DNA of 62,983 nt, the filler included, from Licmophora abbreviata (taxonomy: Eukaryota), in NCBI GenBank assembly GCA_900291995.1. It is 12 parts of 12 records of this genome, joined end to end, with 100 filler letters (N's around TTAATTAATTAA, not from the genome) between each part and the next. Parts side by side here need not be neighbours in the genome. Positions count along the whole stretch, not along the records: positions 3,463 to 11,182 come from OLMU01000698.1; positions 11,283 to 32,719 come from OLMU01000699.1; 10 more parts are not named here. One strand, written 5' to 3'. The notes below the pieces were generated by a model, which did not search any database, had not been told where the DNA came from, and was given only the letters and a program-made list of their open reading frames with translations. Positions 511-37,448 of this stretch are shown one piece after another (within the stretch, counting starts at the first letter, position 1; each line of letters begins with the position of its first letter). A program made the position numbers and the translations under genes.

Positions 511-572
511 TGTTATTTCTTGTCTGTTGCATGCTTCTCTTTCGATCGACGCTGCAAACCAAAACTTCCTCG

Positions 573-1064: not shown

Positions 1065-1654
1065 ACCAGAGAGGCAGCTGCAGAGAGTGAAGGTAGTGGA
1101 CGGCTCTTCGGCGTCGTCCTACCATATTTTTACCAGCACCCTACTCTTACCTAGAGCGCTGTATCACCGTCGTCTCTTTCTTTGGTTGTGAGTTATATCT
1201 GTATTACCCTCATTATGAGCGCATCCGCTAAGCTTAGCTCTGGCTTCTGAACTATTCTTGTGCTGATGTCTCTGTAGTTTAAAGTTACGTGTACTCTTCC
1301 TGTCCTGGTGGACAACAAAGTAATAAATCAGCTTGACTCAACAATTCTTGGTTGCCCTGGCTTGGCCGAGAAGTACATTAAATGTACCAGGTACCAAACT
1401 CATCCAACCAAAGTTCAAATGCACATCAACTGAATTCTAGCACAAGCTAGACTTCAAAGTACAAACTCTTGCAGTTGTCGCAGCGTCGGTCCGGGTGACT
1501 TCCTCCATGAACTTCCACGTGTCAGTATTCGCGAAAGATACGAGTACGTGTCATCCGCATCCCGTGTGAAATGTGAAACTTGAAGATCGTGGATCGGACC
1601 ATGGCCTCGACCGGTGCCGATTGATACAAGTTCGAACAGATCCTGCCAAGAAAA

Positions 1655-4613
1655 ATGACGATGCTCTCACCAAGAAGGCTTTTAGTTGCCGCAATGGTCG
1701 CGTGGACTTCATTCGCCTCTGTACAGGCCTTTTCGCCAACACCAACCTTGCTTCAACCACGACGTGCCATCATGCTCTCTCCGATGCGAGCAGCGACTCC
1801 ATCGACCTCGGACCGAGAAGAGCAACCATCAGATACAAAGAAGAGCCCCAAACGTCTAGTAAAGAAGCTCCGTGACTTTGTCAAGACCAAGCGACTCGCT
1901 AAGCCAATCGCCTTGGGTCTCTTGTCCGCGGCCGCGCTTGATCGCTCGCTCTCGGCCACCCCGATATTCCAGTTTCGTCCGAGAGCAGCTTTGGCATCGG
2001 CTCCCGTTATGGCCCCACCGCGTCGAAATGTGGTCGATGCTGAGACGCAGGCCATGTTTGACGTGAACAAACGCATTCAACGGAAGAATGAANNNNNNNN
2101 NNNNNNNNNNNNNNNNNNNNNNNNNNNNNNNNNNNNTTAATTAATTAANNNNNNNNNNNNNNNNNNNNNNNNNNNNNNNNNNNNNNNNNNNNATATCAGA
2201 ATAAGGCCCGGGAGATTGCTGCCTCTCAAGGAGAAGCGGCACGGGCAAACTACGAAAAAGAGTGGGAAGCCGCTCGAAGAGAAAGGGCAGAAGAAAAATC
2301 TATAGGGCTTGCAACATTGAAACTTGGTCTGCTGGAACAGGGAATCGATCCTTGGATGGACATCGAGGGACAACGGCAGGTGATGCTGTTTGAAAAGGGG
2401 GTAGATCTCGCGGAGGTGCCCGGAACAAAGTTTTACATGGAAAAGGACTTTCAAGACAGTCAGTACAAGCGCAGTGCCAAGTATCAGAAGCAGGCGCATC
2501 GATTCATTATTAAGAGTATGGTTGAAGACATGAAGAACAAAGGAATTGATCCACTTGAGTACTTTGAAAAGAACAAAGACAGAAGTGCAGACATTCTCAA
2601 CATGTCGACAAAAAAGGCCATTGTCGTCGCGCAGCAGTACCAAGAAAATCTCAAACAGTACGGTCAGATAACGAAGCCAAAGCCTGGAGAGGAACTTGCA
2701 AAGCTAGACCCTAAGGAAATGGAGGCTAAGGCGAAGGTCGAAGCCAAGGAAGCTGCAGCTGCCGCGAAGCGTGAGGCAAGAGAAGCTCGGGCAAGAGCAA
2801 AAGCCGAAGCTAAGGCCAAGAAGGCTGAATTGAAAGCGATGGCAATGAAACAGAAGCAGACAGCTAGAGAGGAAGCTCGTCTTGCAAAGGAATCTGCAAA
2901 AAAGAAGAAAGCCGAAGCAAAGGCAGCAGCTGGTGCCATGGCTGCAGGAGCATCGGCTGCCGGTGTACTTGCTGCCACTAGCGCGTTGGGAGATGCTGCA
3001 GGGATTGTTGAAGGGGCAACAGCTCCCGAATCAGGAACATCGGGCGGGTTAAGTAGTGTTCTCGAGGAAGTGGCGACGGATGATGTTGGGTCTGAACCTA
3101 AGGGTGTTTCCAGTAAGAAGGAGGCACTGGTCACTGGCAAGCAGGAATCCGATGGCTCACGGATCCTGCCCGCGGTAGCGTTCGTCGTTGCGGCCGGCGG
3201 TGGAAGTTTTGCGTTCCAGAAGCTTCAAGAAAAGAAATCTTTTGATGAAGAAGAGCGACAAAGGCAGTTCAGACTGATATTAGGAGACGGCGACCAGGTC
3301 GGCGGCGAGGCCAACGGTAGCAAGAGAAGTGATATTCCTTTGGCGGAATTTCCGTTGGATCTNNNNNNNNNNNNNNNNNNNNNNNNNNNNNNNNNNNNNN
3401 NNNNNNTTAATTAATTAANNNNNNNNNNNNNNNNNNNNNNNNNNNNNNNNNNNNNNNNNNNNATGGATATCGAAGAGCACAATGCATTTGAGGACTCTTC
3501 TCCGGAAACGACGGCTGCCGAGCCTCAATCGCCCGCTCCAAAGAAACAGAAACGAGGGATCAGATCAATGTTTGGGAAGAAGAATGCAAACAACCGTGAG
3601 GTCGACGTGGATGTACTTGTGAGCGAGAGTGCCAGTGCACCCCAGTTTGCTTTGCTTCTGTCGAAACTTCTGACGTTTGGTGCTCCCGGCCGCTTTCCAC
3701 GGGTAACCAAGATGAAAGGTTCCATGCCTATGGAAGAGTTTGATTTAGAAGCCGCCAAAGAGCAATTGACCGAATGCGGAACTGCAGTCGATATTACGAA
3801 GGAAGAGGCGGCAGAGGTCTTCGCGAACGTAGTCAACTGTATGCTGATTGACATTGTTGACCTTGCATCGTCGACCCTCAAAGAAGACGATAAAGTCACA
3901 GTTGATGCCATCAACATCGTCGTTGATTTCATGAACCATGCCGCGTCACTCTATGAGTCCATCGCCGAGGTGAGTAATCACAAATGCCTCTCACATCCAG
4001 TCCATTCTGCCTCCCCTCTGGTTTACCACGTGCTCACAATTTTTCCCTCTGCATCACTCAGGGCGTTGTTATTACTCCTGTGACTTACGGAGGCACTCTT
4101 GGAAGGTCGAAGTTAGAACAAATGTACAGTACCTACGCCGTTTCTGGAATGATGTCCATGGACGAAGGCTTCAATGCCCGAGTGGGACTTCTGCAGGACG
4201 TGTTCGATATCACTGAGAAAAAAGCAGAGGGTCTCATGATGAAGGCTATGCAAAAAAATATGATGCAGATGATGAAGGACCCTGAAAGCATGGAGGGTAT
4301 GGAAGAGATGATGAAGTCAATGGGTGGCGTCGAAGGAATGGGAGGTATGGGAGGAATGGAAGGTCTGATGGGAGCGGAAGGAGACGAGGGGCCAAACCCA
4401 GAACAGCTCAAAGAGATGTTGAGAATGCTCAAGGAGATGAAAGACTCTGGGACCATTCCTCCAGAAGAGTTGGAAGCCGTGCGCTCACAATTCAAGGAGG
4501 CGTTTGGCTCAAGCATCGAAGAGGTGATGAAAGACGCCGACAAAGACCAGGATGCACTGGGCGACACTGACAAGGAGCTACTAGATCTGATGAAATCGAT
4601 ACTGGACGACTAA
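1655..4613 (+). CDS. Large plastid-targeted hypothetical membrane protein, split by two assembly linkers
   Basis: Signal peptide plus ASVQA-F cleavage motif; K/A/E-rich coiled coil; TM segment (ILPAVAFVVAAGGGSFAF); helical C-terminus with an M/G-rich tract. GT-AG intron 3970..4061 joins the ORFs starting at 3463 and 3984. Continuity across the gaps is inferred. Confidence 0.6.
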
Positions 4614-4691
4614 ATCTAGCTACGATAGCGCCAGTCAAAGTTAACACAACTGTACTAGAGTAGATTACTAGTACTTTGAACGTATCGCAGT

Positions 4692-5771
4692 CTACTCATA
4701 CTCGTTCGCTTCATTCTTCGCGTACTTGTAGTCTGGATTGTCAGGGTCGGGCGTTCGCTCAACCAGATTCAAGTCCAGCAATACCGCAAAGGCTCGATCC
4801 TCCACGCTTTCAATCTCGGCATACTTCTCGCAAAGCTCCGGGTCGTCCAGCGTCTGGGTGATGTATTTGCTTTGGAAGCGAGGAGCAAGCGTTTTCGCCA
4901 GGGATGCCGACTTGTCCATCGTGCGTCGCAACAGGTTGGTACTCGGCTGTGATTTCACTTTTTTGCTGAGTGTCACAGTGGAGGTACGCAACGGTGGCTC
5001 CTCCGCCTGTACTGGTATAATTGGTGTCGTGCCCGCAGGTTTTGCACTGTTACCAGCGGCAGTAGAAAGAGGCTTGTCAAAACGTTCACGTTGCGACGCG
5101 TCTTGATGTGTTGCCATAGCTACCGGAGTAGCCAGTGAGCGCTCATCCTCATTCATCGCGCGTTCTAGCATGCGACCCACTTTCTTCTCAGCTGCTTTCT
5201 CGTATGAGTATCCCGTCTCCAGTTTGCTATCTACGACTGCACTGCCATCATCTTGAAGTATGTCGTCGTCGAGTGTGAGCTTCTCTTGCTTCTTTGGCCG
5301 CAAGGTAGTTCCTACCAGTGCCCCTGTACCTCCCGCTACCATCACGATAGTAGCCCCCTTTCGGAACTTTGAGCTGCTTTTGGTTGTTTCTTCAATGGCG
5401 TCAGAACGCTGTCGCGTCGTCATCGGCACAGCGTGCCCAGAATCGCGTGCAGCATGTGCCACTCCCGGCGACCAGTTGTTGGTGCCAGTGCAGGCAAGTA
5501 CAAGCACGGCGAAGGCCACGGACATAAGATGGGCAGGGATGCGACTTTGAGGACGAGAAGGAGGAGCTTTGTGCATTAGAAAGTCTGGCAATCTGGGACC
5601 TAGCTCATGCCTCGGCGGAAGCCATGAGGAAGGGCGAAACAGAGGAGAACGCGTCGCGGCATTCGTGGATCGCAATCGACCGGCTCTTTGCACCGCGATC
5701 TGATAGCTGGAGACGGGTAAGAGGAGGAGCCCCATGAAAAGGAACGAGCAAATGAATCGCATCTTTCTCAT
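4692..5771 (-). CDS. Hypothetical signal-peptide/membrane protein
   Basis: MRKMRFICSFLFMGLLLLPVSS signal peptide, two hydrophobic segments, and a compact C-terminal motif (KYAEIESVEDRAFAVLLDLNLVE..PDPD). Confidence 0.6.
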   Translation of the reverse strand: MRKMRFICSFLFMGLLLLPVSSYQIAVQRAGRLRSTNAATRSPLFRPSSWLPPRHELGPRLPDFLMHKAPPSRPQSRIPAHLMSVAFAVLVLACTGTNNWSPGVAHAARDSGHAVPMTTRQRSDAIEETTKSSSKFRKGATIVMVAGGTGALVGTTLRPKKQEKLTLDDDILQDDGSAVVDSKLETGYSYEKAAEKKVGRMLERAMNEDERSLATPVAMATHQDASQRERFDKPLSTAAGNSAKPAGTTPIIPVQAEEPPLRTSTVTLSKKVKSQPSTNLLRRTMDKSASLAKTLAPRFQSKYITQTLDDPELCEKYAEIESVEDRAFAVLLDLNLVERTPDPDNPDYKYAKNEANEYE

Positions 5772-6417
5772 TCTCGTCACTTCATGTGTAATACTGTGAG
5801 GCCGAGTGAGACGGAACAAGATTCAAGATGGGTCGCAACGACAAAATGGCGGTTTGAAACGTCGCAACGTTCTCGCGCCCTTTCTTCTTTCGCACATACC
5901 GCTGCGTGACGTCAGCGAACGCCAACGGCCTCTGTTTCGACCAATCAAAATCGATGGCGTCACCGTCAAGTCGAGTGAGACGAATCAATCAACGTACTCA
6001 TACATAGTCTATGCGGCCGGCTCTAATTCGCCGTGTCTCCAGTCTTTGGCTGGAGCCGCAGGTCGCAACGCAACCGCATGCACTTAGCATTTTGCAACGG
6101 TACCATTACCTGGTACCTGGTAGTCGTACCGCGTAGAATAACACTAGCTCGGTCCGGCGAAGGTGCCGTAGTCGAAGGACACGCGAAAACAAGCAACGAG
6201 ATTTTACTGTTCTAGCACGTGTCTCACTAGACTTTAGAAGACGGTGCCGGGTGAAACACACAATTATATAAGGTAAACAGGCATTTAGGAGACTAGATAC
6301 AATGTCCACAAGGCCGGTTCCGTACCCTTCGCATGCGCTGGTCCTCTCCTGGCCGCCTTCCAGATCGGTTCCCTTACGCCCTACGCCCCTAAGCTGCTCC
6401 ACAATTCACAATCGCTT

Positions 6418-6885
6418 CTAATACGGCTTTTCTTCCGGGGCTCCATCACTGTAGTCAGAGCCAAGCGGCTCGTCGTCGCTCGCGGCAAAGCCCTGTCCGT
6501 AGCCTCCACCGGGCGGGCTGCGGTCATTTCCGCCGTATCCACCAAAGGACTGCGCCTGACGAGCACCCTGGACTTCCACGCCATCTGGTCCAGTCACATG
6601 TACGGCCCGACGCCGTCCACCCGCTTCCTCTTGCACTTCAAACTCGACGTTTTCTCCCTCATCTAGACTACGGAATCCATTCTTGTGGACCTCTGAATGA
6701 TGCACAAAGACGTCCCCCGAACCATCGTCCGGTACGACAAAGCCAAAGCCCTTCTTCGCGTCAAACCACTTCACGACACCGGTTGTAGTCGAGAAGCAGG
6801 AAGCCTGCTGAGGAATGGTGCTTCGAGCCAGAGCAGTCATAGTTGTGCGTCGCATAAGCGACGTGGTCAAGGAACGGAGCAACAT
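6418..6885 (-). CDS. Cold-shock domain protein with probable mitochondrial presequence and Gly-rich tail
   Basis: [16 protein letters not shown] (RNP1), DVFVHHS (RNP2), [14 protein letters not shown] and [12 protein letters not shown]-rich N-terminus. Confidence 0.93.
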
Positions 6886-7178
6886 TGCGAGGTAGGATGG
6901 GGTGGCAGCAGCGAAAGTAGAAAGTACAAAAAAGATATGATCAAACGCGAACAGATGTTGTGAATGGAGAAAAGAGTGGTGGTGAACGGTGAAGGGAAGG
7001 AGAAATGTGAGGCTGACAGCAGAGCCGTACGATGACAGACACGTGAATGCGAGCTTTTTTTCTTCTTTTTAGTCTCCATTCGTCAAATCACGACCGCCGG
7101 ACAGTTGGCACGTTTGTGGGCACTCCATTGAGATGCATGCCTGGTGCCTGGTACCGGTACCTACAACCAGGTAGTGTT

Positions 7179-7207
7179 GTGCTGTGCTGTGCTGTGCTGT
7201 GCTGTGC
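7179..7207. repeat. (GCTGT)n microsatellite
   Basis: gtgctgtgctgtgctgtgctgtgctgtgc seen directly. Confidence 0.9.
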
Positions 7208-7319
7208 CGTGTCCCAGTCATCCTCCGCCATTTGCTTCACGCCAGTCGTTCTAAGAGATTCCTTACTTGACTCCTCTTCCCTTACTGAACTCCTCTTCTG
7301 AGATTGCTGCAATCCGACT

Positions 7320-8099
7320 ATGTTCTTCGGTAAACGATCAGGAACGACGAATCCTGCTGCCAATGCCCGTGGAGGCTCTCGTCCCCAGTTCTCCTTCATC
7401 CTTCCCATTCCTCCCGTCTCTCGGTCGATTTATCAATTCATGAGGCGGAAGGTAGGACTAGGGGATGCCGCGAATAACGCTGATGCTCACGCGCTCAACA
7501 GCCACCAATCTGAAGAAGCGAAGAGAAAACGAAAAATTCAAAAACAAACGGAGCCGTTCCAGATCAGGCTGCGCGACCTGCAGGCACAAAAACAAGATGG
7601 ACTGGCGCAGATAAACCGAGCTGGACACGAACAGATGGAGATTGCGTATGAGGAGACGAAAGAAAAATATACACACGAGTACGTCGCCAAGTATCAAGAG
7701 AGACATGCAAAACTGCAACAAGAGCTGGAAGAGACGAAGGAAGCATTCGGTCGACAACAGGAGGAAGAAGGGAGAGAAGTTGAGGAGCCCCAGCCCAAAC
7801 GAGCGCGATTGGAACCGTCGGAAGATTCCGACCAAGAATTGAAACGTCCTCATGTAGAGAATGATCATTCGAAGGATGACACCTCCAAGGTCGATCCGAA
7901 CGGGAATGCTGATGCGGACACCGGCGCTCCTTCAGAGGCTGCGGCAGCTACTGGCACGCTTAACCCTAGCGAAGAAAAGGCAGAAGCACTGAAGACAGTC
8001 AGCAAGCACCTCGATGACCTTGGCGAAACCAAGAAAGAAATGATTTGGCTACTAAAACAAGTCATCAAGGCGGAGCAGAAACAGAAAGACGATTCATAG
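7320..8099 (+). CDS. Hypothetical coiled-coil protein, probably nuclear
   Basis: 259-aa ATG ORF with E/K/Q heptads and basic clusters (KRKRK, PKRAR). Confidence 0.7.
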   Translation: MFFGKRSGTTNPAANARGGSRPQFSFILPIPPVSRSIYQFMRRKVGLGDAANNADAHALNSHQSEEAKRKRKIQKQTEPFQIRLRDLQAQKQDGLAQINRAGHEQMEIAYEETKEKYTHEYVAKYQERHAKLQQELEETKEAFGRQQEEEGREVEEPQPKRARLEPSEDSDQELKRPHVENDHSKDDTSKVDPNGNADADTGAPSEAAAATGTLNPSEEKAEALKTVSKHLDDLGETKKEMIWLLKQVIKAEQKQKDDS

Positions 8100-8450
8100 T
8101 CAGTCACACTTCCGACAAACTTGGCCTAAAATAATGATTTACTTTTGAATAAGATCTGCTCTTACCCCATCGGATACTTCACTTTGGTGCCTCGCCATCG
8201 AACGATACCATGATTTAGTACCTGTTCCATACCTGGTAGAGCCTCGTCTACTCCATATCCTATCACACTTTGTGCCGGTAGGAACCTAGTGTGCTGTACC
8301 GTAACGTGCGTACCACGGACGAGGGACAGTCGTCCCTTGTTTACACAAAAAATGACGGCGAGTGGCAAGTGCCATCACAACATCCGCCATCCACCAGACC
8401 AAGAACATCCGAAGCTTAACCTGGTTGCCGTCGTTTCATATCTTTCCACC

Positions 8451-8684
8451 ATGAGCTCCTCTGGTGGCCATGCTAAAACGAACAGCAACGGCGACAGTCG
8501 AAAGGAGCAAATTCTGTTGCGGCTAGCAGATGACGAAGACCACACTCGCTGCGTCGAGGGCAACAAGCAGGCACTGCTCGCCGAGACGCTTTCGCATCTT
8601 CGTGACTTGACCAAAGCGATCAAACGGGACGATTGGAAATTTCAAAAGCCGAGAACTTCAATTTCCGAGGGTTCCAAGGGATAA
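8451..8684 (+). CDS. Small protein with an APC16-like C-terminus
   Basis: 77 aa from a CCACC-ATG. LSHLRDLTKAIKRDDWKFQKP resembles the APC16 C-terminal helix plus D-E/D-W-R/K-F-(x)-K-P motif. Confidence 0.45.
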   Translation: MSSSGGHAKTNSNGDSRKEQILLRLADDEDHTRCVEGNKQALLAETLSHLRDLTKAIKRDDWKFQKPRTSISEGSKG

Positions 8685-9183
8685 TGAATCTTCTCATATA
8701 AAAAGGATGAATTTGGCAATTATTCGAGAGCAGATGTTGACCCCCAAAACCCGGCATTGTTGGAAAATAGAAGAACTACCAGGGTACGAGACTATGAGTA
8801 CTTCTGTCATACCTGGTAATGCACCGACCTAAAAAGTGTGTATCGGAACTGGGATCATATTATATGATACCACCTGAAGATTTCCTAGGAGTGTACACAA
8901 AGAGGAGGGTCCGAGTCCAAGTATTGAATGAGCAGCTCTTTATTTATTCTTCTATCCTCTTCTCACCTACACAAACCGACAACATCAAGAGCACATGCTA
9001 ATAAAATGACATCTGAAGATAATGATCGAATCCTGTTTTACTGGGGTACCTCGTAGTTGTACCTGGCAGCGGTTGCTTAGCCCTGACGCCTGACGATTCC
9101 ATTCCTCCGTCTACTCGTACTCGTCATTCCTTCCAGTCGGTGCTACCGTTGACTAGTTGATGACTTCATTTGCCGTTGGAATC

Positions 9184-9337
9184 CACTGACTCACTCACTC
9201 CGCGCAATACATCCAAGGATCTCGCTTCTCCTCCGGTCACGTCGGCAACAGGCGTCCAGTCACTGACTCACTTACTCCGCGCAACACATCCAAGGATCTC
9301 GCTTCTCCTCCGGTCACGTCGGCAACAGGCGTCCAGT
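9184..9337. repeat. Two-copy 77-bp tandem direct repeat
   Basis: CACTGACTCACT...GGCGTCCAGT at 9184 and 9261, with 2 substitutions. Confidence 0.95.
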
Positions 9338-11457
9338 GAGCGAAGACAGAGCTGGCACGGACTTCAAGAGTCACGATGAATGAGCAGTACAAATAAAATG
9401 TCGAGACGATAACAAGCTTTTTTACTAAAAAAGCAGTCGTTGAGACAACAAGCTTTTTACTTAAAACAGCTCTCAGACTGAGGCCAGCCAGCGCAACTCC
9501 GATGCACCACCCGACGTTTCAAACCAGTCGGTTCTCACAAATACAGAGCCTATGACACATTACAAAACGTCGGCGCTAGAGAACCTTATTGTTGACTCCC
9601 ACGTCATAGTCGCTGCTCCCACAAAGCGCTCGTGTCCAACATAACAACTCTTCTCACCATTTCTTCTATGGCCACATTTGATCTTCGTAGAGTTCCTCAT
9701 CTCAGGTTACGTCTTGAATACAGCTAAGAGATGTCACTACTAATTGTTGCATTTTCTAAATAGTTTTGCAAATAATGCGTCCATACGATACGACCCTCGG
9801 GTTCGGTTCGCTCCATCAAAGCTGGAAGGAAGTTGATGCTCATACGATCTCTGTTCTCGTCCTCTGAATGGAACGGAGACTATGAGCTATCTCTTCCTTT
9901 TTCATCGAGGCTTTTGCCCGAGTAGGCATCCTAAAAAAATCACCATTCACTGGAGCCATACACGGCAACAAACCGAGAAGAGGCACTTCCTGATGACATG
10001 ATATCTTACCACGAGCCGACGGAATTCAGACGTAAATTTTACTTGGAAGGTGTCGAGTAATTCTATGACCTTTAAAGTCACAGAAAGGATCTAACCCCCT
10101 TGTTGTGCCCTACTAATGGCGTTGAGCCTTGAAGTGAATTGATCTTAGCGTCTCGATGAAGAATCGATTATCATGTTTTTATCTTCATTTTATATGATCA
10201 ATAAGCGAACAGTCAGCTGCATCAACAACAGGAAATTTTGGATGCACGGAAGGTCATACTTTCGACCTGAATAATCGTTGAGTGCGACTCTTTTCTGTCT
10301 TCCTTTTAATAAATGCTACGTATATTCCTTCTCATATTTCACGACTTGCGACTTTCATTTTCCTGAGATGAGATTTTCCGTCACGCTGCATATTGAGTAT
10401 AAGCATAGTGCCTCTTACGACCGAATCCTGAGAGAAAACAAGCTCATTCGTGCACATACTAATCAAATGAACTGAATCTTTAAGCTTTAGTTGTTTGGGG
10501 TCGGATATTTGGAATATATTTTCTCAATCCTTGCTGGCACTCCTATGAAACAGTGGACTCAAGAGTTTCGAGGTTTGTCGCTCGTTTTGTCCAGATCTTT
10601 TGCTGTCGAGTGTTCATTGAGGTAGCTTAGTTGTACGGCCCAATTGTGATGTCGCTCGAATTGCCCGCTTTCTCTGTAGTTAGTCCGAGTATGGCATATG
10701 AATGGTTCCTAGTCAATTAGATCTGTCTTCTTGGATCTCAAAGGTGCCTGCTTGTGGAAGCTGCAGGTCGAGTCTTGCATGAAAGATCCTCTGACGCGGT
10801 GATGATCAGGCTCCCATCCAATCCGAAACGGTCTCCTGTCTGCCGCTGCTACTGCAGTAGTATGAGAGCAACGTGAAAGTCGGGGAAGCTTTATGGTTCC
10901 TATCACGTGAATGTTCCGGGTATTCACTACCTGGTGACGGTGTCGCAGCCTAAGAAACATAGTCGCGATCAAGCTAGCTAGCATTGTAACGCCGAATGCG
11001 AGAAAGAGAATCCCATCCGGACCTTGGTACAGGTACCCAGGTATTGGCGACAGAATAGTAAGCAAAGAAATGAGTAGGAAACCTTGGATTTATGTCCAGT
11101 GCTGTATGCGAGCCCTAAGCTGTATCGATTTTGTGCGTTCCACCAAGGACTGAATAGTCTACACTAGAGGTACGTAGTCTTCNNNNNNNNNNNNNNNNNN
11201 NNNNNNNNNNNNNNNNNNNNNNNNNNTTAATTAATTAANNNNNNNNNNNNNNNNNNNNNNNNNNNNNNNNNNNNNNNNNNNNCAGAGCCTCGCGCGGCTT
11301 CGCGCGGTGCCGCAGCACAGTTCGTAGACGGCGGATGAGGGCTCATTCTTCGGTGGATTTGGGATGCGCAGTAGTGGACTGACCATGAGGTTGGTCGAGT
11401 TTTTGTGTTTGAGAACCCACCTCATACTCAAAAGAGAAGCAGGGCGATATGACGGAT

Positions 11458-11900
11458 ACCTTCAACGGTAAAAACAGCCTCAACGGCTACACTAGCTCGA
11501 GCCGACGAGTCACCTCCCCAACCAACGAGGAGAAGCATGACTCTCGCGCCGACTCAGTAAGAGATCATCGAGTTCACCTCATTCTGGATGAGAAGCATGA
11601 CACTCACGTCAAACCATAACAAGACCTTCAACGGTACAACATGCCTCAACGGCCATGCCATACTAGCTCGAGCCGACGAGTCTCTTCCTCACCCAAGAGG
11701 ATAAGCATGACTCTCGCGCCGACTCAGTTAAAGATCAGCAAGCGCACCTCATCCCAGATGAGACGTACGACACTCACGTCAAACCACGACAACACCTTCA
11801 ACGGTACAACATGCCTCAACGGCAAAACCAGCTCGTGCCGACAGTCAACCTCATCAACGAGTAGACGCGCGCCGACTCAGTCAAAAGCAGCGAGTTCCTT
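11458..11900. repeat. Degenerate ~166-170-bp tandem repeat, about 2.6 copies, in the element 5' region
   Basis: ACCTTCAACGGTA at 11458, 11624 and 11794; shared blocks CTAGCTCGAGCCGACGAGTC, GACTCTCGCGCCGACTCAGT and GACACTCACGTCAAACCA. Confidence 0.92.
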
Positions 11901-12342
11901 GACACTCCAGCCTCTCAACCTCTAACAGCCGGCAACCCACAGCGGCAAAACAGCCTCCAACGGTTCATCCTAGCACACCCCGGACCACCAATCCTATCAA
12001 ACTTCCACACAAACGAGCGACGACCTCAGCCGGAATCATCGTGAATACAAATTCAACCAATAGAATTTAATCACGAAATCAAAATAATGACTAAAACACT
12101 CGCAAGTGGGAGCGAAAATACTTAATTAAAAATGAGACACCATCTTGATCTGCGAAGGCGAAAGTTTTAACTACGGCTAGACCCGTCTTCAAAAGATCAG
12201 ACACACTTGCCAAAAAACAATACCAAAAGACCGTGGATCCTACGGCAAATTCGGGATTTCATCATCCCAAACAATTCACTTTTCTCTCACTTTCTCGGGT
12301 CTTCAAGCAACGAGCAACAAAAAAAAGAAAAACAGAACTATC

Positions 12343-14703
12343 ATGATCTACTCTTCCGCAGCCATCGCCAACCTGGTTTACTCCAGTCTCCCCGCCAACG
12401 AACAGCGTGCCATGGACGGTCGCTTCAGTACCGCAGTCCCCGCCTCCGAAGTGCCGAGCACCAGCCCCAGCCACCTCGGCAACCAGTTCATCAAAGCCAA
12501 CTCGACCACGCAGTCTCGTATCGCGTGTATCACCATGGCGAAGCAGATCGTCTTCGTCAACAAGACTCTCGGCATCATTCAGGTGCTGAGCAACCCCAAG
12601 TGTAGTCTTCTCGACGAAGACCCAGACGGCGAGCTCTACGTCGTCGGAGGCATGTCCGACAAGGTGAAAGATGCGGTGCCGGGCGGCATCCGTTTGGCCG
12701 ATCTTTGCCGCGACGTTCAAGTCCCATTCCCCCGCGAGTCAGAACCCGAGCTCGAGTACATCAAGGGAGCCTTTGCATTCAATGAAGAAGTGCCTGGACC
12801 TGATGGCGTCGCTCTCGGCATCTACGAGAACATGGACACCACCATCTTCAAGACAGTCCCAGAAGGGGAGGAAAATCTAGTCCTCGCACGAGTGCCAGTT
12901 TGCCTCCCAGTACCCGCTGGCTATCCCCTCGATAGTGCGAAGATCACCGATCCCGACAAGGCGGAGAACTTTCACCAGGCGGCTTCTGCAATCAGCCCCG
13001 TTCACGACCTATGGGTCTCGGCATTCTACCTTTTGGCTGTGCACTTTGGCGGCAAGGCAATGAACACAGCCAACATCAACGTTCCGGAAGAATTCCTCCC
13101 GGGAGAAAACCCAGGCCTCGAGTTTGCGGACACTATCGGCGTCGAAGTCATCAACTTGGATCCCGACTCCGAAGCGTTTCGTTTAGTATCAGCATCGATC
13201 ACTCACGACCGCGAGAAGAACCGCGAAAAATGGGTTGAAGAAAACAAGGAAAAAGTCAAAGCTATCATGGCTAAGGTTATTGGAACTACCTCGACTATCC
13301 AAGGGGGACCTCATCCAGGACAGCCAGCCAATGCACCAGCACCAGTCACGCCTAGGACAAGCAAGGAACGTCTCGACGAATCCAAGGTCGAAAAAGCAAA
13401 GGCCATCTACAAGCTCATGCTGGCATCGGAATCTACTGATGAACCAGGAACCATCACTCTTGGCGAGCCCAGCGACTTCCTGTCCGGCCTCTTTCCATCA
13501 GCTAACTCACCCAGGCCCGTCCTACCAGACATCCAGCTCGAACTGCGAACTTACATGGAAAAACGCAGCGCGTGCGTAACGGACGTCTTGTCCTACAAGA
13601 CATCCTTCCCAGTAGGGGCAGTGGGGCCGATGTTCGTAACAGCCCTATTGAGCGGCAAGTTCACCACCGTACTGATCCACGAAGTGGACTCCGTCGGTGG
13701 CGCCGGAACAGGGTTGAGTATCTTCAACTACCTGCAAACAACGACAGCCTCGGCTCGTTACAAGGAAGCGGTCGAGAACAACAAGACGACGGTGAGGCAA
13801 GCGATGTTGGGCGAAAGCGACATCAACAGCACGAAGATGTCCTTGTCGATCTTCTCCGGAGGAGAACAGTGGTCTCACGAAGACGTCTTGGCGGCTCTCG
13901 CCAATACCCAAGGCATGCTTACCTTCCTGGGACAGCCAAAAGCGTATGGGGATCCAACTTCGTTCATCTCCGAGGCAATTCGCGACCTCTTCGGGATCTT
14001 AGCACATCCAAAAGTCGAAGCAGTCTTCAACATGGCCGCCGACCTCAAGCACGTCGCACATGCAGTACTGGCCGATATCCAAGGCCTCTTAGCCGAGCAT
14101 GCAGCGTTTGCAACCAGTGCGACGAACATAGCTGCCGTCATCACGGGACAGCCGGTCGATTTTAGCCAATTCGAAAGGCTCAAGCTCCTCAAAGCCCAAC
14201 TCCAGCGCCGCCTCATCGACAATTTCCGTATGGGCCAGTTCCAACAATACAAGGACCCCCCCGCCTCTTGGAAAGTCTTCATCAGGAACAAAGAAACCGA
14301 CGGATCGAGCGGCCAAGACAAGCAAAAGGGAAAAGGGAGCAGCAAACCAGCCGGAACCGGAAATGGCGGGGCAGAACGCCGCAGCAACCCAGAGATGGGT
14401 GACCTGGTCTTCACCGGCCCTCCGAATCAGCGCCCTCCCGCCTTGCGACTGTCAGGGGATCGTCCACTCCTATGCCTCGACTGGGCATTTATCGGAAAAT
14501 CGTGCCACAAGGGAGCCAGCTGCAGCATGGCCCACAAAACATATCCCAACATGGGTAGCGCCGCGAACAAGACGGCGATGGAAAATTACGTGGCCAACAA
14601 TCGCCAGATCGAATGGGCACCACGCCATCGCAACCCACCTACTCGGACAGGGACGCCAGGCACTCAAGCAGACAACGGAGGGAACAGCGGCAGACGCGGT
14701 TAG
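12343..14703 (+). CDS. ORF1, gag-like protein with C-terminal CCCH zinc finger
   Basis: 786-aa intronless ORF directly upstream of the RT ORF; CLDWAFIGKSCHKGASCSMAH = C-x9-C-x5-C-x3-H, flanked by basic and Gly-rich tracts. Confidence 0.75.
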   Translation: MIYSSAAIANLVYSSLPANEQRAMDGRFSTAVPASEVPSTSPSHLGNQFIKANSTTQSRIACITMAKQIVFVNKTLGIIQVLSNPKCSLLDEDPDGELYVVGGMSDKVKDAVPGGIRLADLCRDVQVPFPRESEPELEYIKGAFAFNEEVPGPDGVALGIYENMDTTIFKTVPEGEENLVLARVPVCLPVPAGYPLDSAKITDPDKAENFHQAASAISPVHDLWVSAFYLLAVHFGGKAMNTANINVPEEFLPGENPGLEFADTIGVEVINLDPDSEAFRLVSASITHDREKNREKWVEENKEKVKAIMAKVIGTTSTIQGGPHPGQPANAPAPVTPRTSKERLDESKVEKAKAIYKLMLASESTDEPGTITLGEPSDFLSGLFPSANSPRPVLPDIQLELRTYMEKRSACVTDVLSYKTSFPVGAVGPMFVTALLSGKFTTVLIHEVDSVGGAGTGLSIFNYLQTTTASARYKEAVENNKTTVRQAMLGESDINSTKMSLSIFSGGEQWSHEDVLAALANTQGMLTFLGQPKAYGDPTSFISEAIRDLFGILAHPKVEAVFNMAADLKHVAHAVLADIQGLLAEHAAFATSATNIAAVITGQPVDFSQFERLKLLKAQLQRRLIDNFRMGQFQQYKDPPASWKVFIRNKETDGSSGQDKQKGKGSSKPAGTGNGGAERRSNPEMGDLVFTGPPNQRPPALRLSGDRPLLCLDWAFIGKSCHKGASCSMAHKTYPNMGSAANKTAMENYVANNRQIEWAPRHRNPPTRTGTPGTQADNGGNSGRRG

Positions 14704-14897
14704 TACATGTCCACAACGACACCACAGCTCAGTAAAATAAATCAAACAGCATCGTCTCATGAACCGACTCCCTCTCTCACACTCGGCTACACGTCTCACT
14801 AGGAGGGACGTTCGATTCACGCACCTTCTGCCTCAACGAAGAAGACAACATTGTAGAACTGCTACCCCGTCAACCATCCGGGGCCATTACACCTGCC

Positions 14898-17624
14898 ATG
14901 ATCGTCGCCCTAAAACAGAAGCAGCAAGGCTCCACGGCCAGTACCGGCATCCGCACAGTCGTCGAAGACACCGCTTCTACCGAAACAAGGGACAACAGGG
15001 ACGAGTCGGGGGGCACACGGCACAGGGTCCCCCAACCGGCGCAGATAGTACGGCAGCCTCGCCGATCAGTCTCGACTGTACTACCACCAGCGTCGCGACA
15101 GGAAAATAAGCCTTCGTTGGGCACGACCATTCTTCCCCGATACTGGTCACACTCGCGGATACCTCGGGCGCACGAATTGGCCCGCACACAAGAATTTGGT
15201 AAGAACAATTGCACTCAATCGTTCGTAACGGAAAAAGTCGTCTCCCACGTGCTCCTCCCGATCTACAAAAGCGGCTTCCTCAGCAACTGCGAACGCAAGA
15301 TCCTCCAAGGTACCATCCGTGGCGCCGAGCCATTATGGCGAGCGTGGCAGCAATACAAGGACACTGACTTCACGGCACTTCAGCTCCCAGATCCCCTCTG
15401 GTCCGAGAAAACCGAAATCAATCACGACCGAGCCGACATGTTCCTCGCGTGCGCGTTGCATTACGACTTGGATATGGCGGCTGTGTACCGCTTCGTCGGC
15501 GGGAACTACGTCGCTTCTCACCGTAATCCGGAGAAAATTCTCGAAGACACTTTCGGCCTGATAGCCGAAGAAGACTTCGAGCATTTGGGCCGCATACTTC
15601 GCCTGGGAGCACCAGCCAAGTTCCGCGAATCGTGCACTAACGCCGAGTTCCGCCAATATCGGATGTACGGGAACCACCCATCACTCGATGCAAATATTGA
15701 AAAAGTCAGGCTCGCGTTGGTCAAGGACGACTCTCGCTGTAACGCCATCTACTTTCCGGAATGGGTGACGGACTTCGCTCCCGATATCATGCTGACTCCG
15801 CTAGGCTACGCAAACGACCGGTTGATTGTTGACTCGTCCTTCCAAGTGACCCCTGATAGCCGACCATACAACATGCGGACCGACAGCACGGCCGAGCCCA
15901 CAATCCACTTCGGTAACGCCCTGCGAAGGTACTGGCGCCAAATTTACAACATCCGCGCCTCCTACCCACGAGCCGAAATCCTCCTGTTTGATGACGACGT
16001 CTCTGGATGCTTCCGACACGTAAAATACAATCCCAACGTTGTCTCGGCAAAAGCTTTCGTGGTGGACGGCTGGCTGGTACTAGCAACGGGGCAGACATTC
16101 GGTGACAGCACCAGTCCCCCGAATTGGGAACCCCTGGCACAAGCACGCATGGCCATCGCTCAAGAATTGTCCCGCTCGGGTGCCCCCGTCCCGGCTTACG
16201 CGGACTACCTGGAAGCAGTGGAGTTTCCAGCGACCGACGTAATTCCTGATGGGACTTTTATCGCCCCAGCCGTCACCGACAGTCACAACCCGGGGGTCTT
16301 TGATGAGGAGGGACACTGGCGGCCCACGGAATTTAACATGCACGTCGACGATAGCTTGTACGCAAGCGTCGATATCCGCGAGTTGCAACGGAACATGCAG
16401 ATCAGCATCGAGGCTTTGAATCGAATCCTGGGGCACCCGGTACCCGCCGAACGACCCAACGCTGTGGACCTCTCCAAGTTTCGACGGGGCAAGATTGGGC
16501 ACACGCGAGTACAAATTGGATATCTGCACGACTCGCGCCGCATGCGAGTGGGGATCCCCGACGACAAGCGACAGCGTGCTATCCAAAAACTCCGGAAAAA
16601 TTGGGGACCTCATCGACGCTCCTTCAGTCTCCTCGACGCCGCCCGGTTATTCGGTGATCTCCTGGCCCTCTGTCGGATTTGTCCATGGGCCATCTTCCTG
16701 TTCTGTAACCTGCATAGCGAAGTCTGCAAGCTCCTCAAGAACAATAGCCGTCGACTGATGCAATCTCCGACGTTTCAGGCACTGGTGGCAGATCGAGAGG
16801 CCGCGAGTATGGGGCACCCGCCCAACACGGCACGGTTGCGATGGTTCCATTCTAAGGTTGCCCGCGCCATCTGGCACGGCCAAGCAAAGACGTATATCGG
16901 CCAAGACATGCGCGACGAACTGCGTTTCATCCTGCATATCCTCGAGCACCCGACAGTGTACGACTGGTCGGGGTACATCGGTGACCTCCTGCCACGCGAT
17001 CCCCAGTACCACGCCTGGACCGACTCCTGCACGACCGGAGGTGGGGGACTTTCTTTCTCACTTCGTTTCTGGTTCAACGTCGTCTACCCTGAGCGAATCG
17101 CAAAACGCACCATCTCCTACATCAAGTGCTTCACCGACAAGCACCTCATTTCTATCAACCTCCTCGAGTACGCGATGCTGATTGTTGGTTTGGCGGGCGC
17201 CATCACGGCTTGGGAACTGCTACCATCGTCCTCCCGGCCGTACCACCCCCTCATCCTCATCTGGACCGACAACACGTCGGCGGATTCATGGACACGGAAG
17301 ATTGCAGGGCTCAAAGGTCCCCAAGGCCGCGCCCTGGCGCGCATCTTTGCTAATCTCCTCATGTTCAGCGACGTCGGAGTCAAGTCCGACCACATCGCGG
17401 GAGCGGATAACGAGATCGCCGATTACCTGTCTCGAGCGCGGCTCGACAACATGCACTCACGTTTCTCTCGCGCCCACCTGGTATCTCAGTTTCCACAGAC
17501 GAAGGCCTGTCGGCGTTTCCTCCCGAGTCCCGCGCTCCTCTCCGAGATTTACACCGCGTTGTCCAATGGATCAGCACCCATGCGAACGACCCGGCTCGAG
17601 CTCGGACGGATCGAAACAGACTAA
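14898..17624 (+). CDS. ORF2, reverse transcriptase plus RNase H
   Basis: RT motifs RLIVDSS, DDDVSGCFRH, GQTFGDSTSP, MHVDD and QIGY; RNase H motifs WTDSC, INLLEY, WTDNTS and HIAGADNEIADYLSR. Confidence 0.92.
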   Translation: MIVALKQKQQGSTASTGIRTVVEDTASTETRDNRDESGGTRHRVPQPAQIVRQPRRSVSTVLPPASRQENKPSLGTTILPRYWSHSRIPRAHELARTQEFGKNNCTQSFVTEKVVSHVLLPIYKSGFLSNCERKILQGTIRGAEPLWRAWQQYKDTDFTALQLPDPLWSEKTEINHDRADMFLACALHYDLDMAAVYRFVGGNYVASHRNPEKILEDTFGLIAEEDFEHLGRILRLGAPAKFRESCTNAEFRQYRMYGNHPSLDANIEKVRLALVKDDSRCNAIYFPEWVTDFAPDIMLTPLGYANDRLIVDSSFQVTPDSRPYNMRTDSTAEPTIHFGNALRRYWRQIYNIRASYPRAEILLFDDDVSGCFRHVKYNPNVVSAKAFVVDGWLVLATGQTFGDSTSPPNWEPLAQARMAIAQELSRSGAPVPAYADYLEAVEFPATDVIPDGTFIAPAVTDSHNPGVFDEEGHWRPTEFNMHVDDSLYASVDIRELQRNMQISIEALNRILGHPVPAERPNAVDLSKFRRGKIGHTRVQIGYLHDSRRMRVGIPDDKRQRAIQKLRKNWGPHRRSFSLLDAARLFGDLLALCRICPWAIFLFCNLHSEVCKLLKNNSRRLMQSPTFQALVADREAASMGHPPNTARLRWFHSKVARAIWHGQAKTYIGQDMRDELRFILHILEHPTVYDWSGYIGDLLPRDPQYHAWTDSCTTGGGGLSFSLRFWFNVVYPERIAKRTISYIKCFTDKHLISINLLEYAMLIVGLAGAITAWELLPSSSRPYHPLILIWTDNTSADSWTRKIAGLKGPQGRALARIFANLLMFSDVGVKSDHIAGADNEIADYLSRARLDNMHSRFSRAHLVSQFPQTKACRRFLPSPALLSEIYTALSNGSAPMRTTRLELGRIETD

Positions 17625-18738
17625 GCACGTATCTCTCGTTCTGTGCCCGCCATCAGATCTCCGATCCCCTACTCTTCTGGGCCCATCAATTCCTCACTGC
17701 CGCGAACTTCATGGGTATGTACACCGCGGACCTGGCCATGGGCAACACCATCAATCAACGAGTTGTAAAATCCGATACAGTGAAGAAGTACCTTCGCGAG
17801 GCGGAGAAGCACGTCCAGACCGGCAGAGAACGCCACATGCAGGTACATCCGACAGCCCCACGCCTCCTCTGGACGCATCCGACCCTTGCAGCGGGCGACC
17901 AGAAACGGCATTCGTGTGTCGATAGCATCCTATTGGAACTCCGGCGTTTCAAAAAACTACCAAACCGGCGGGACCCCATGACAACGGACATGATCCTCCA
18001 CCAACAGCAACTGGCGTCGTCAATCAATCCGCATTCGCTAGCGACCGCACTCAGTGAGTGGTTCGTCATCGGCCTCTACCTCGGACTTCGCTTGCACGAA
18101 TGGGCACAGAGCCACGGCGTCCGGGCACTGGATAAGGTATGGCTCAATCCGGATGGTACTCCCAAGGCTTTCCTCGTCGAGGACATCCGGTTCTTCGGTC
18201 GCCATCGTAGCCGGATCACTCGCGACGACGCGCTCACCCATCCTAATAATGTCCACTCGGCGGACTTCTGTTTCCGTTTCCAGAAGAACGGCGATAATGG
18301 TCAGTGGGTGATGCTCGTGCGGAACAAAGATCAGCCGCACCTCTGCGGGGTCACTGCTGCACTCAAGATCGTGCAGCGTGCCGCCGATCTCGCCATCGCA
18401 CCCGAACATCCCGTCGCCATCTTCACCGCCGACGGTCCTTGGGATGGCACAGTACATTTCATTTCAGAGTTGCACATCAAGCAGGCCCTTCAAGCGGCCG
18501 CAAAGCAATGTTATAACATCTCCGATGCCGAAGAGCTGGCACGATACTCTTCGCACTCGATTGGGTCGGCGCCTGCGTTGCTCTCCATGCCGCCGACCGC
18601 CCCCAGATGGACATCAAGCATGCCCTCCGCTGGCGATCCGACACCTTCTGGAACTATCTGCGCCACTTGCCACGGACCGCCCAACGCGTCGCCGACGCAA
18701 TCGCAAATTTCAATCCTATGAGCCTCTCGTGGGAATAG
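17411..18738 (+). CDS. ORF3, tyrosine recombinase, with a 1-nt frameshift at ~18563
   Basis: GLYLGLRLHEW (catalytic R), FRFQKNGDNG (K), then SHSI[R]VGACVALH...LRWRSDTFWNYLR (HxxR, W, Y) after restoring one base. The frame is open from 17411; first ATG is 17711; the restored frame stops at 18738. Confidence 0.88.
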
Positions 18739-18865
18739 TGTTCTATTAGGCATGATCATTTCCAACTATCCTTAGTCGCACGCATTCTCGGACCGAGACA
18801 TCAGCTTGACGGTTGCCTTGGCATGTCGCACTTCCCGCCACATGAACACGCACGCGACCATAGAG

Positions 18866-18927
18866 CGCGATTGCGACTATGTCAGTACTGATGGGCGCCC
18901 ATCAGTACTAAAATAGTCGTAATCGCG
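18866..18927. repeat. 62-nt inverted repeat/hairpin with a perfect 26-bp palindromic core
   Basis: CGCGATTGCGACTAT-gtc-AGTACTGATGGGC|GCCCATCAGTACT-aaa-ATAGTCGTAATCGCG. Confidence 0.95.
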
Positions 18928-19188
18928 GGCCTGGGTTGCTTGCTTGCTTGGAAGTCAGCGTCTCTGCCTAGATCAATCGAGTGATTCGAGCTCCCGATGG
19001 GATGTGGTCGGGTGTGTCTGTGTCAAATATATGCGCTGCCGAACAAAGGTCGGAACCACACCGCGTTCTGCACAACATGGCAATTGCTAGAGCTATTTTT
19101 TCAGGAAATCCCTCGACTATCGCTGTTGGAAGCATACCAGGTATCATTGTACCGCATCGAAATCCTTCAATAGGTTGCAACACGCAGA

Positions 19189-21338
19189 ATGATTCGTCCT
19201 TTTGTAAGGACGGCGATACGGACGCGATTTCCCCGAAGTACGGCTCTAGCTGGATATTTGCCTTCAAGACCGCGTCTTCCGGGCGCAACGCCGCCTTCGA
19301 GGTCATTCTCTTCCGCCCAGCAGATAAAGGACGAAGAAGCGCCGACGCCTACTCCGTTTGTGAAAAGGGAAGACGTGCAAAAAGAAGAACAGAAGCGAAG
19401 GCGTCTATCCGAAGTGAGTTTTGTGATTCAGTTCTGAATTCAGTTTTGTAGATTCACCTCTACATATTTTGCCCTCTGTTTGGTTTCTCTCACGCTCTAT
19501 GCCTCTGGATTCTCGCAGGTTCTTATTTCCGAAGTTCTCAGAGCCAAACATGCACTGCGCTGGGTCGATCCGGGTCTTGGAGCGACCTCCACTATCCAGG
19601 AGGCCGTGACGGCCTGTATCGATGGAGGACTCAGCGGAATGATGGTGGTGGACGGCAAGAAGGTCCTTGGGCTTACCTCGTCGCGTGATTTGCTTCGCAT
19701 AATTGCCGCTGGAATTCGAGATGGAGAAACTCCCGAGAAAATACTGAACCAGCCAATTGGAGATTTCATGACCCCCATTTCGCAAGTCATCTACGCGAGA
19801 CCGGAAGAGACGATTGGAATGTGTCGCACCATCATGGCCAAACTGGGAATCAAATGTCTTCCCATTTTATCCAAAACGGGACAAGTCGAGGGACTAGTGA
19901 CGGCCAAGGATATGGCCGACTTTGGATTGGAGGCAACGGACAAAGGCGGCAAAAAGTCGTTCCTACGAAATATTTCGGAGCGAGTGGGTTTGAGTTCCAA
20001 CACGAGCATGGCGGAGCCGCCTCCCTATCTACAGGCACACTTGGCGCTTGAACAGTCACCACTCTTTGTCAACATTGCCGTCTCCGAACTTCCTCATCCC
20101 TTTAAGAAAACGGATGGATGCGGCATGAATCATCGAGGTGCGGATCATGTTGTGTCGTGCCATTAAAAGTTGCTACGTTTTTCCCTTGTGCCTCACGCTC
20201 CCAAGTTTTCATCGTTCGCACAGACTTTGGCCCCCATGAATTCTCGATGGATACGGAAATGTCAGAGGACGCCCATTTTGTTGCGGAAGTTAGGCTCCCG
20301 GACGAAGCGGGCGACAAGTTTCGCGACGTGACGTATATGGGAGTCGCGGATGGTGTGGGCAGTTGGCGAGAGTACGGCGTCGATCCACGCGAGTTCTCCC
20401 ACCGACTCATGGCAGAATGCGAAAACATTCTTAAGGAGGCAGCGGCAAAAGCAGAGCTGGGCGGAGGCAAGTTTCGACGCATGATTGCCCCGGCGGAGAT
20501 CCTATCGCAGGCGTACGAACGAGTCAAGGCGGCGAACGTGATTGGATCATCGACGGCCTGTGTGGCGCTCGTGGACAGCATACGACACCAACTCCACTTC
20601 AGCAACTTGGGCGACAGTGGAATTATCGTGCTACGACACATTGATTCGGACGTGGCAGGATCGCTGAAGCGAAGTAAGACGCCGCGAACAGAACGAAAGT
20701 CGGATCTTCGAGTGGCTTTTGTATCACAACAGCAGTTGAAGTCGTTCAATCACCCGTTCCAATTGGGTTGGACTGGCGAGGAAATAGAAGAGGGTGAAAG
20801 TGTGTCGTTCAAGAAGGCTTCAGATTCGTGTACGACTTCGATTCATGTCCGACGTGGCGACATTGTCATCGCGGCTACGGATGGCCTGTTCGACAACGTT
20901 GACGTGGAGGATATTGCAGCGATAGCCTTAGAATGGGAACAAAAGAATGGGTTCATCCGTAGCGGCGATATTATTGCGCGCGAGAAGCGATGGGCGATGG
21001 GAAACTCTCTGACGGTACTATCAAACGAGACGCTTCCGGAGCTGGTGGAGGCCCTCTGTGTGAAGGCGCGTGAGAACAGTCTCGACACGACTTTGGACTC
21101 GCCGTTTGCTATACTGGCCAAGGAGAACGACATCATGTGGAGCGGAGGTAAGAAATGGCGGGAATGGCAACATCCATTGATCTGTTCATTGGATTCTTAT
21201 CAGTGTGCTGACGTATGTTGCTTTGGTTTTGCTGTTGGATCTCATTTGAAAACAGGAATGCCGGACGACTGTACAGTGATTGCCATGCACGTGGTCGGGA
21301 GACATCACGACGACCTGATGGACAAGGACCACCAGTGA
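19189..21338 (+). CDS. CBS-pair plus PTC7-type PP2C phosphatase fusion (4 exons)
   Basis: CBS motifs (VLGLTSSRDLL, LGIKCLPI..VEGLVTAKD) and PP2C motifs (SEDAHF, GVADGVGSW, GSSTAC, NLGDSG, ATDGLFDN, GGMPDDCTV). Introns 19414..19518, 20138..20223 and 21148..21255 keep the frame. Confidence 0.9.
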
Positions 21339-34002: not shown

Positions 34003-36977
<2,975 letters not shown>

Positions 36978-37448
36978 GGTGGCAGAGAAAGCTGTCAATC
37001 GACAGACACACGGCGCAAAGTGCAAACTCGTCCATTGAGTTTTGAAACTGAGAATACTGGTGTCTGATAACCTGGTTGAAGTGTACACTATGTTCTNNNN
37101 NNNNNNNNNNNNNNNNNNNNNNNNNNNNNNNNNNNNNNNNTTAATTAATTAANNNNNNNNNNNNNNNNNNNNNNNNNNNNNNNNNNNNNNNNNNNNTGGC
37201 AGAGAAAGCTGTCAATCGACAGACACACGGCGCAAAGTGCAAAGTAGAAAGTAGTCCATTGAGTTTTGAAACTGAGAATACTGGTGTCTGATAACCTGGT
37301 TGAAGTGTACACCGTGTTCTCGTCGCGTCATCAAAATGGTGTGTCTGTTCATGACTTACACACAAACACGACTGACGGCGCCGCTTTTTTCGATTTCCAA
37401 GAATGAACCCACCCACACACAAGACACAAGGCTAACGCACACCATTGG

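Follow-up and report, generated by a model that had tools for sequence, protein, structure and literature searches.

Three proteins at the Licmophora locus

We analyzed a stretch of 62,983 nucleotides from Licmophora abbreviata, referred to here as the window, which carries a candidate tyrosine recombinase (YR) retrotransposon from position 11283 to about 18927. Three open reading frames (ORFs) on the + strand have exactly the sizes claimed in an earlier note on this DNA: ORF1, a gag-like frame of 786 aa (12343-14703); ORF2, the pol frame of 908 aa (14898-17624), which is open from 14763; and ORF3 of 336 aa (17711-18721), the YR ORF as read from its ATG. Within the window, tblastn detected only this one copy of the element. 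At E<=1, Pfam returned nothing for the three ORFs beyond two chance-level matches in ORF3, and there was no integrase or protease match in the ORFs.

ORF2 is a reverse transcriptase (RT) with RNase H, as identified by its modeled fold and its motifs. An alignment of 16 pol sequences contained the invariant motifs FDDDV, TFGD-SSP, and HVDD, followed by D...E...D...N-x3-D-x2-SR, and every family-invariant RT/RNase H residue is kept in ORF2. These comprise D365/D367 and D484/D485 in the RT domain (approximate limits 15744-16817, + strand), where FDDDV (15990-15998) and HVDD (16347-16352) hold the catalytic aspartates, and D709, E757, D791, and D842 in the RNase H domain (approximate limits 16995-17447, + strand). 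The AlphaFold model built from this alignment reached a predicted local distance difference test (pLDDT) score of 68. Its best Foldseek match in the PDB was the protease-RT of foamy virus (E 5e-5), followed by the RTs of Ty3, Moloney murine leukemia virus, and cauliflower mosaic virus; it also matched RNase H1 chains, with template modeling scores of 0.5-0.65 normalized by target. The 20 homologs from a word search with pol share 33-48% identity, and none carries a Pfam domain. The pol frame ends ~65 aa past the ADxLSR motif of RNase H, where the family alignment stops as well, and neither a methyltransferase (Dam) nor any other Pfam domain was found in ORF2 at E<=1. Thus, the element has no methyltransferase domain behind its RNase H. 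Ahead of the RT fingers, pol residues ~110-280 (within 14898-15740) form a conserved, mostly helical region of ~170 aa with an FGKDN..QSFT motif, for which Pfam and a PDB sequence search gave no match.

ORF3 is a Cre-like YR, as judged from the predicted fold and the family profile. The profile matched the catalytic region of Cre (E 0.006), and the model of the YR from an intact relative, L002 (pLDDT 82), had Cre as its best PDB match (E 2.4e-6). This model matched 42 PDB chains at E<=1e-3, all of which, among the matches listed, were tyrosine recombinases. The active-site residues R, K, H-x-x-R, W, and Y show no variation across 25 sequences or, as with R327, almost none. An alignment-based YR search returned 119 matches, all of them family members and none informatively named, while the word-based homolog search with the window's YR, which is frameshifted as described below, found nothing. 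The nearest named ESM Atlas clusters carry Phage_integrase, ALOG, and DUF3504.

The first frame of the YR (17411-18564, + strand) lies at -1 relative to pol and encodes Arg I (18089-18091), Lys (18284-18286), and His (18554-18556) of the active site. Its conserved N terminus begins at ~17507, upstream of the ATG, and overlaps the end of pol (17624); ~40 conserved YR residues are encoded within this overlap, upstream of any ATG. The same -1 arrangement was found in 51 of 54 ORF pairs, with an overlap of typically 150-310 nt. No canonical -1 slippery heptamer is present in the pol/YR overlap of the window, and only a minority of relatives have one there.

ORF1 was assigned as gag-like from its position and its zinc finger only, and on these two grounds it would play the role of Gag. 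The C-x9-C-x5-C-x3-H finger at 14473-14535 (+ strand) has the ligands C711, C721, C727, and H731, each kept in at least 90% of 12 aligned sequences; 19 related ORFs are likewise long and carry the conserved CCCH finger. One contig of a public metagenome run (X5) skips 121 nt within gag (12689-12809). The skipped segment ends TC..GT, which is not intron-like, its length is no multiple of 3, and the contig probably stems from another copy that carries a deletion.

In these respects, our results agree with the earlier note, which had described a YR retroelement without methyltransferase, with recognizable catalytic RT/RNase H motifs, a pol that ends shortly after RNase H, and a CCCH finger in the gag-like ORF. 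The RT/RNase H fold, the Cre-like YR, the lack of a Dam match, and the finger ligands conserved across the 12 aligned relatives all bear this out.

A large family in diatom-type marine DNA

Scanning metagenome contigs, we obtained 104 relatives, of which 79 loci were kept. An exhaustive profile search returned 10,169 representative proteins at E<=1e-3; this number fell to 4,731 with a limit of 1e-10 and to 1,320 with one of 1e-30. Among the matches listed, 150 of 150 were family members. Wherever a contig is long enough, the genes follow one another on one strand in the order gag, pol, YR. Three studies (four public runs) contain contigs that are 90-100% identical to many parts of the window's element. 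The one informatively named family member, KAG7368827.1 from Nitzschia inconspicua, is a 1915-aa "hypothetical protein" whose gene model joins gag, pol, and YR into one. Bacillariophyta is the label of the nearest ESM Atlas clusters, and the taxon labels recovered for pol relatives (one NCBI record and the nearest Atlas cluster) are all diatom; no relatives were found in viral contigs. Thus, the element is a member of an extensive family from diatom-type marine DNA, which is unannotated because Pfam misses both its RT and its YR. Public data hold thousands of distinct protein clusters of this family, and all of its named members are called "hypothetical protein"; the alignments built here would let annotators recognize such elements, for example the Nitzschia 1915-aa model.

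In the usual description of diatom genomes, Copia-type retroelements dominate. DIRS-class elements do appear in annotation tables, with 14 copies in Phaeodactylum (PMC5859163) and an entry for Fragilariopsis (bioRxiv 10.1101/2025.04.02.646770). DIRS/Ngaro-like elements are also reported for Ectocarpus (PMC3145265). A literature search, which did not reach Repbase or the supplements of the cited papers, found no paper characterizing a diatom YR retroelement family. In our reading, the element is a new and very divergent representative of a known type.

A quick maximum-likelihood tree, built from 41 pol sequences, separated a sister clade of 11 rows from a clade of 18 rows that includes the window, both with a Shimodaira-Hasegawa-like approximate likelihood ratio test (SH-aLRT) value of 100. 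The pol of the window shares ~30% identity with the sister clade and sits on a long end branch in this quick tree (1.13 as compared to a median of 0.29).

Split direct repeats were found in full-length relatives. In L061, the repeats are A1 at 3397-3643, B1 at 11984-12186, A2 at 12183-12429, and B2 at 12446-12648, and L029 shows the same pattern of A1, the ORFs, and then B1-A2-B2; the identity between repeats in the two loci is 99.6-100%. The flanks of L061 and L029 differ on both sides, and we saw no target duplication of 5 nt or more. Partial versions of the pattern are present in L024, L035, and L030, the last of which (1-12748) contains a head-to-tail pair of elements that are 80% identical and are separated by a 468-bp x3 (B-A)n array. 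Judged by their sequence, the 100% identical split repeats of the sister-clade copies show that the family is active in natural populations. B ends ...CCGATTT and A begins (A)TTTTAGACC (L061 3397 and 12648; L029 388 and 9572), and the 3-4 nt common to the B|A junction may be a crossover core. In the window's own clade, the only full copy, L002, is a circular assembly with a 127-nt end overlap and a unit of 8787 bp, which fits terminal direct redundancy, tandem copies, or circular DNA. Inverted repeats were absent from seven long loci.

The two clades also differ at the junction of gag and pol. In all five elements of the window's clade with a visible junction, the gag stop lies within an identical GGTTAGT, and in L004, GGTGAGA occurs a few bases upstream of the gag stop. 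In the window, a candidate GT..AG intron of 104 nt (14699-14802, + strand) has a donor, G|GTTAGT, that overlaps the gag stop TAG at 14701-14703, and its removal would fuse gag to pol in frame. The gag/pol frame offset is variable within this clade (-1, +1), and in each element a pyrimidine-rich acceptor follows in frame, 61-104 nt downstream, giving candidate introns of 61-85 nt in four relatives. Because each element offers 10-14 AGs in range, the in-frame acceptor does not discriminate, and the case for splicing thus rests on conservation of the motif at the nucleotide level. By this measure, the gag stop motif looks like a 5' splice site overlapping a stop codon, and splicing would yield a Gag-Pol protein. 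The matching contigs of the public runs, among which no RNA source is listed, contain no joint at 14699-14802. Of 18 gag/pol pairs examined in the sister clade, 13 have both genes in one frame, and in 10 of these (L017, L024, L025, L027, L028, L029, L030, L034, L037, and L061) the two are separated by a single TGA, which suggests stop-codon readthrough. The context of this stop is mostly TGA-GCN-TTT. If splicing truly removes the gag stop in the window's clade, it would be an unusual route for a retroelement to set its Gag:Pol ratio.

By analogy with the model published for Ngaro, PAT, and VIPER, the replication route is likely to start with a full-length RNA from which both the gag-like zinc-finger protein and the RT/RNase H would be made, with Pol and the YR reached by translational routes that we infer. 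The RT would copy the element RNA, and the terminal split direct repeats (A1 ... B1-A2-B2) would bridge the cDNA ends to give a closed circle. The Cre-like YR would then recombine this circle into the chromosome without a target-site duplication.

Taken together, 11283 to ~18927 is probably one copy of a DIRS-order YR retrotransposon with an Ngaro-type layout, in the large unannotated family described above. The predicted RT/RNase H together with a YR in place of a DDE integrase or endonuclease is the combination that marks the DIRS order, and the gene order without a methyltransferase, as read from the sequence, is that of Ngaro-like elements. Several observations weigh against this assignment. 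The term Ngaro-type describes the layout alone and implies no placement in a reference phylogeny. ORF1 has no Pfam match at E<=1, no PDB sequence match, and no detectable capsid similarity. The RVT_1 cut-off of Pfam was reached by 0 of 41 pol proteins, with sub-threshold matches in three, and the Pfam match of the L002 YR was also sub-threshold (E 0.019). One of 60 listed weak YR-like matches, in L035, lies on the minus strand. The sister clade alone showed split direct repeats, which were not seen in the 18-row clade of the window, and 12 of the 20 long loci that were compared with themselves contained no long repeat, many contigs being too short for both ends. Last, blastn (word size 7) detected no common repeat between the 5' and 3' non-coding parts of the window's copy. 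The claim that no terminal repeat is shared therefore stands for the visible parts, but it is uninformative, because the 5' end is cut at a contig edge.

The earlier note had gone further and suggested an atypical architecture and possibly a distinct stramenopile lineage. The architecture is not atypical: according to PMC3783388, gag, RT/RNase H, and YR without a methyltransferase, together with A-pol-B-A-B repeats, define Ngaro. The proteins are too divergent for Pfam, and both the named relative and the nearest Atlas clusters are diatom; a separate superfamily-level lineage of YR retroelements is possible, if somewhat doubtful. The RVT_1 result, the precomputed PF00589 annotation of only 2 of 119 YR relatives, and a PDB sequence search and a profile search that both found no RT for pol would all suit such a lineage. 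However, general RT profiles miss about half of fungal DIRS/Ngaro RTs anyway (PMC3783388), and the failure of Pfam is therefore weak evidence for deep novelty. A very large gag-like protein (786-820 aa) with a CCCH finger instead of a CCHC knuckle, the conserved helical region ahead of the RT, and the uniformly diatom labels of the pol relatives point toward a separate lineage, whereas the gene order, the missing methyltransferase, and the A1-B1-A2-B2 repeats match Ngaro exactly. The finding of these repeats in L061 and L029, one half of the outcome that the note itself had named as refuting it, speaks against a separate lineage for the family, but both loci belong to the sister clade, at the low pol identity given above. 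Moreover, the published RT trees of the order are described as poorly resolved (PMC6681497). The most far-reaching version, in which a fifth major YR-retroelement lineage, widespread in diatoms and missed by domain models, makes Gag-Pol by regulated splicing and its YR from a -1 overlap without start codon or canonical slippery site, seems to us rather unlikely. We retain the reading as a divergent family of Ngaro-type layout.

Ends and integrity of the copy

The window consists of 12 contigs chained by 11 identical N44-TTAATTAATTAA-N44 linkers, located at 2093-2192, 3363-3462, 11183-11282, 32720-32819, 34561-34660, 37097-37196, 40156-40255, 41694-41793, 45261-45360, 47446-47545, and 59304-59403. 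Six-frame stop linkers serve to concatenate contigs, and because the window is such a chain, gene neighborhoods across the linkers are not established. What had been taken for a gap at 11183 is thus not a sequencing gap but one of these artificial joins (11183-11282), and the sequences flanking it need not be genomic neighbors. The contig that bears the element spans 11283-32719 and starts inside the element. Since 11283 is a contig edge, it is not an element end; the 5' end is unassembled, and the DNA to the left of 11183 may be no neighbor at all.

The incomplete 5' non-coding region (11283-12342, + strand) contains, upstream of gag, a 170-bp tandem repeat of 2.4 copies that are 77-84% alike (11458-11852, + strand). 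L002 has a comparable 171-bp x2 repeat upstream of gag, with copies 93% alike, and there is no non-coding similarity between the window and L002. We rejected the 170-bp repeat as a unit of split repeats, given this degree of likeness between copies as compared to 99.6-100% in true A/B pairs. An Rfam scan of 11283-19500 found no family at the gathering score.

At the other end, the 3' limit of the element appears to lie at ~18925-18933, as defined by the divergence of metagenome contigs, rather than at 18950 as proposed before. The 3' non-coding region (18739-18927, + strand) is only ~190 bp long, as compared to 800-1150 bp before the repeats in relatives. It closes with a 62-nt palindrome (18866-18927) with 31-nt arms, three mismatches, and no loop, whose right edge coincides with the junction. 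Folded as single-stranded DNA, 18850-18945 gave -30.8 kcal/mol (z -6.9). Independent metagenome contigs diverge on both sides of the junction at 18925-18933, which is a likely 3' end or truncation point. A contig of run X1 matches up to 18925 and continues with other sequence, while matches begin at 18928 in X6 and at 18933 in X1 and X5 after other sequence, which is similar in X1, X5, and X6. These loose ends indicate that two independently occurring units meet at 18925-18933. Another loose end, at 18964, is a small indel variant. The loose-end sequences were not found in the window and had no significant match to the 5' part of the element or to the upstream contig, so that they demonstrate neither an empty site nor a circle junction. 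None of 26 relatives examined has such a palindrome after the YR. We read the 3' end as probably truncated or rearranged, and less probably as native.

The YR of this copy is broken. When an intact relative was used as the tblastn query, the gene matched in two separate frames (17579-18580 and 18565-18717), with the break near 18562-18565. At 18560-18567, about one base is missing where relatives read HSIRVGA: their HSIRVGACV corresponds to HSI|GS in the window, and VGACVALH...LRWRS..WNYLR continues in another frame. This frameshift leaves the second catalytic Arg out of frame, together with the Trp and the Tyr. The C-terminal part in the other frame (18565-18738, + strand) holds Trp at 18631-18633, Tyr at 18655-18657, and the stop codon at 18736-18738. 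An assembly error could account for the frameshift, as 18560-18567 lies outside all matching independent contigs.

The copy had been called near-intact, with long open ORFs that suggested recent activity. For it to be intact and recently active, the frameshift would have to be an error of the assembly or consensus, and the lack of a 5' end would have to be no more than an assembly break in a repeat. ORF1 and ORF2 are indeed uninterrupted and keep all family-invariant residues, and the record, as a chain of short contigs, makes consensus errors plausible. The matching metagenome contigs, however, neither confirm nor correct the frameshift site. Near-identical contigs (95-100%) from three studies cover many parts of the element, and the identical repeats of the sister-clade copies argue for recent activity elsewhere in the family, whereas the short 3' non-coding part, which ends at a palindrome missing from all 26 relatives, looks like a truncation, and the pol of the window has a long end branch. 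We thus consider an intact copy unlikely. As assembled, this copy is not autonomous: its 5' end is missing at the contig edge, its YR is frameshifted, and its short 3' non-coding part ends at the palindrome. Neither the near-intact state nor the recent activity suggested for it is borne out.

Directly downstream lies a host gene (19480-21338) with a CBS domain at 19480-20166 and a PP2C/SpoIIE phosphatase domain at 20118-21338; their placement in two overlapping frames suggests that an intron or a frameshift is present. A 77-bp tandem repeat of two copies, 97% alike, occupies 9184-9337 on the contig that precedes the element in the window. Farther along the window, direct repeats (47 nt at 100% and 82 nt at 93%) flank the linker at 37097-37196, at 36980-37096 and 37197-37320. 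The contigs joined there seem to share ~120 nt, either as an overlap that was left unmerged or as an allelic end.

Comparison with known tyrosine recombinase retroelements

Like DIRS1-like and PAT-like elements, the family combines a YR, an RT/RNase H, and a gag-like ORF, and in those groups, too, an overlap of the YR with pol is frequent. The reading as a DIRS1-like or PAT-like element, with a methyltransferase or inverted repeats that had been overlooked, could draw on this overlap, which is common across the DIRS order (PMC6681497), and on the palindrome at the 3' end. Both groups, however, have a Dam-like methyltransferase after RNase H, whereas here pol and the family alignment stop too early for one and no Dam or other Pfam match was found. 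DIRS1-like elements further differ by their inverted terminal repeats and internal complementary region, which were not seen in the seven long loci; in the window, DIRS1-type inverted repeats are absent, and the only such structure is the 31-nt-arm palindrome, private to this copy. The family thus has neither the inverted repeats of DIRS1-like elements nor the methyltransferase of the DIRS1-like and PAT-like groups, and we regard membership in either as extremely improbable. With PAT-like elements, it does share split direct repeats.

VIPER and TATE, compared here by their published description, are found in kinetoplastid hosts. In VIPER, the YR ORF precedes the RT/RNase H, while here the YR follows pol. 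The resemblance to both lies in their being YR retroelements without a methyltransferase, and TATE forms tandem arrays like that seen in L030. PMC6681497 attributes split direct repeats to PAT-like and VIPER elements alike, places A1 at the 5' end and B1-A2-B2 at the 3' end of VIPER/TATE elements, and describes these elements as often tandem, hard to assemble, and very divergent in their RT.

The recombinase itself resembles Cre of phage P1 and the eukaryotic YRs of the Crypton and DIRS types. It shares their two-domain Cre fold and R-K-H-R-W-Y active site, and the HSxRVGA ... W ... Y-x-R-N motifs align directly. In contrast to Cre, it is encoded in a retroelement, in a frame overlapping pol.

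The closest resemblance in layout is to Ngaro-like elements such as DrNgaro1 and fungal Ngaro. These share the order of gag, RT/RNase H, and YR, the lack of a methyltransferase, a protease, and an integrase, and the A-pol-B-A-B repeats, which are present here in L061 and L029 and partly in L024, L035, and L030; as in Ngaro, no target-site duplication is evident in the relatives. The family differs from them in an RT that is undetectable by Pfam and a YR that is nearly so, in a gag-like protein of ~800 aa with a C-x9-C-x5-C-x3-H finger, in its diatom-type hosts, and in its gag stop, which the window's clade embeds in a splice-donor-like motif and which takes the form of one in-frame TGA in the sister clade.

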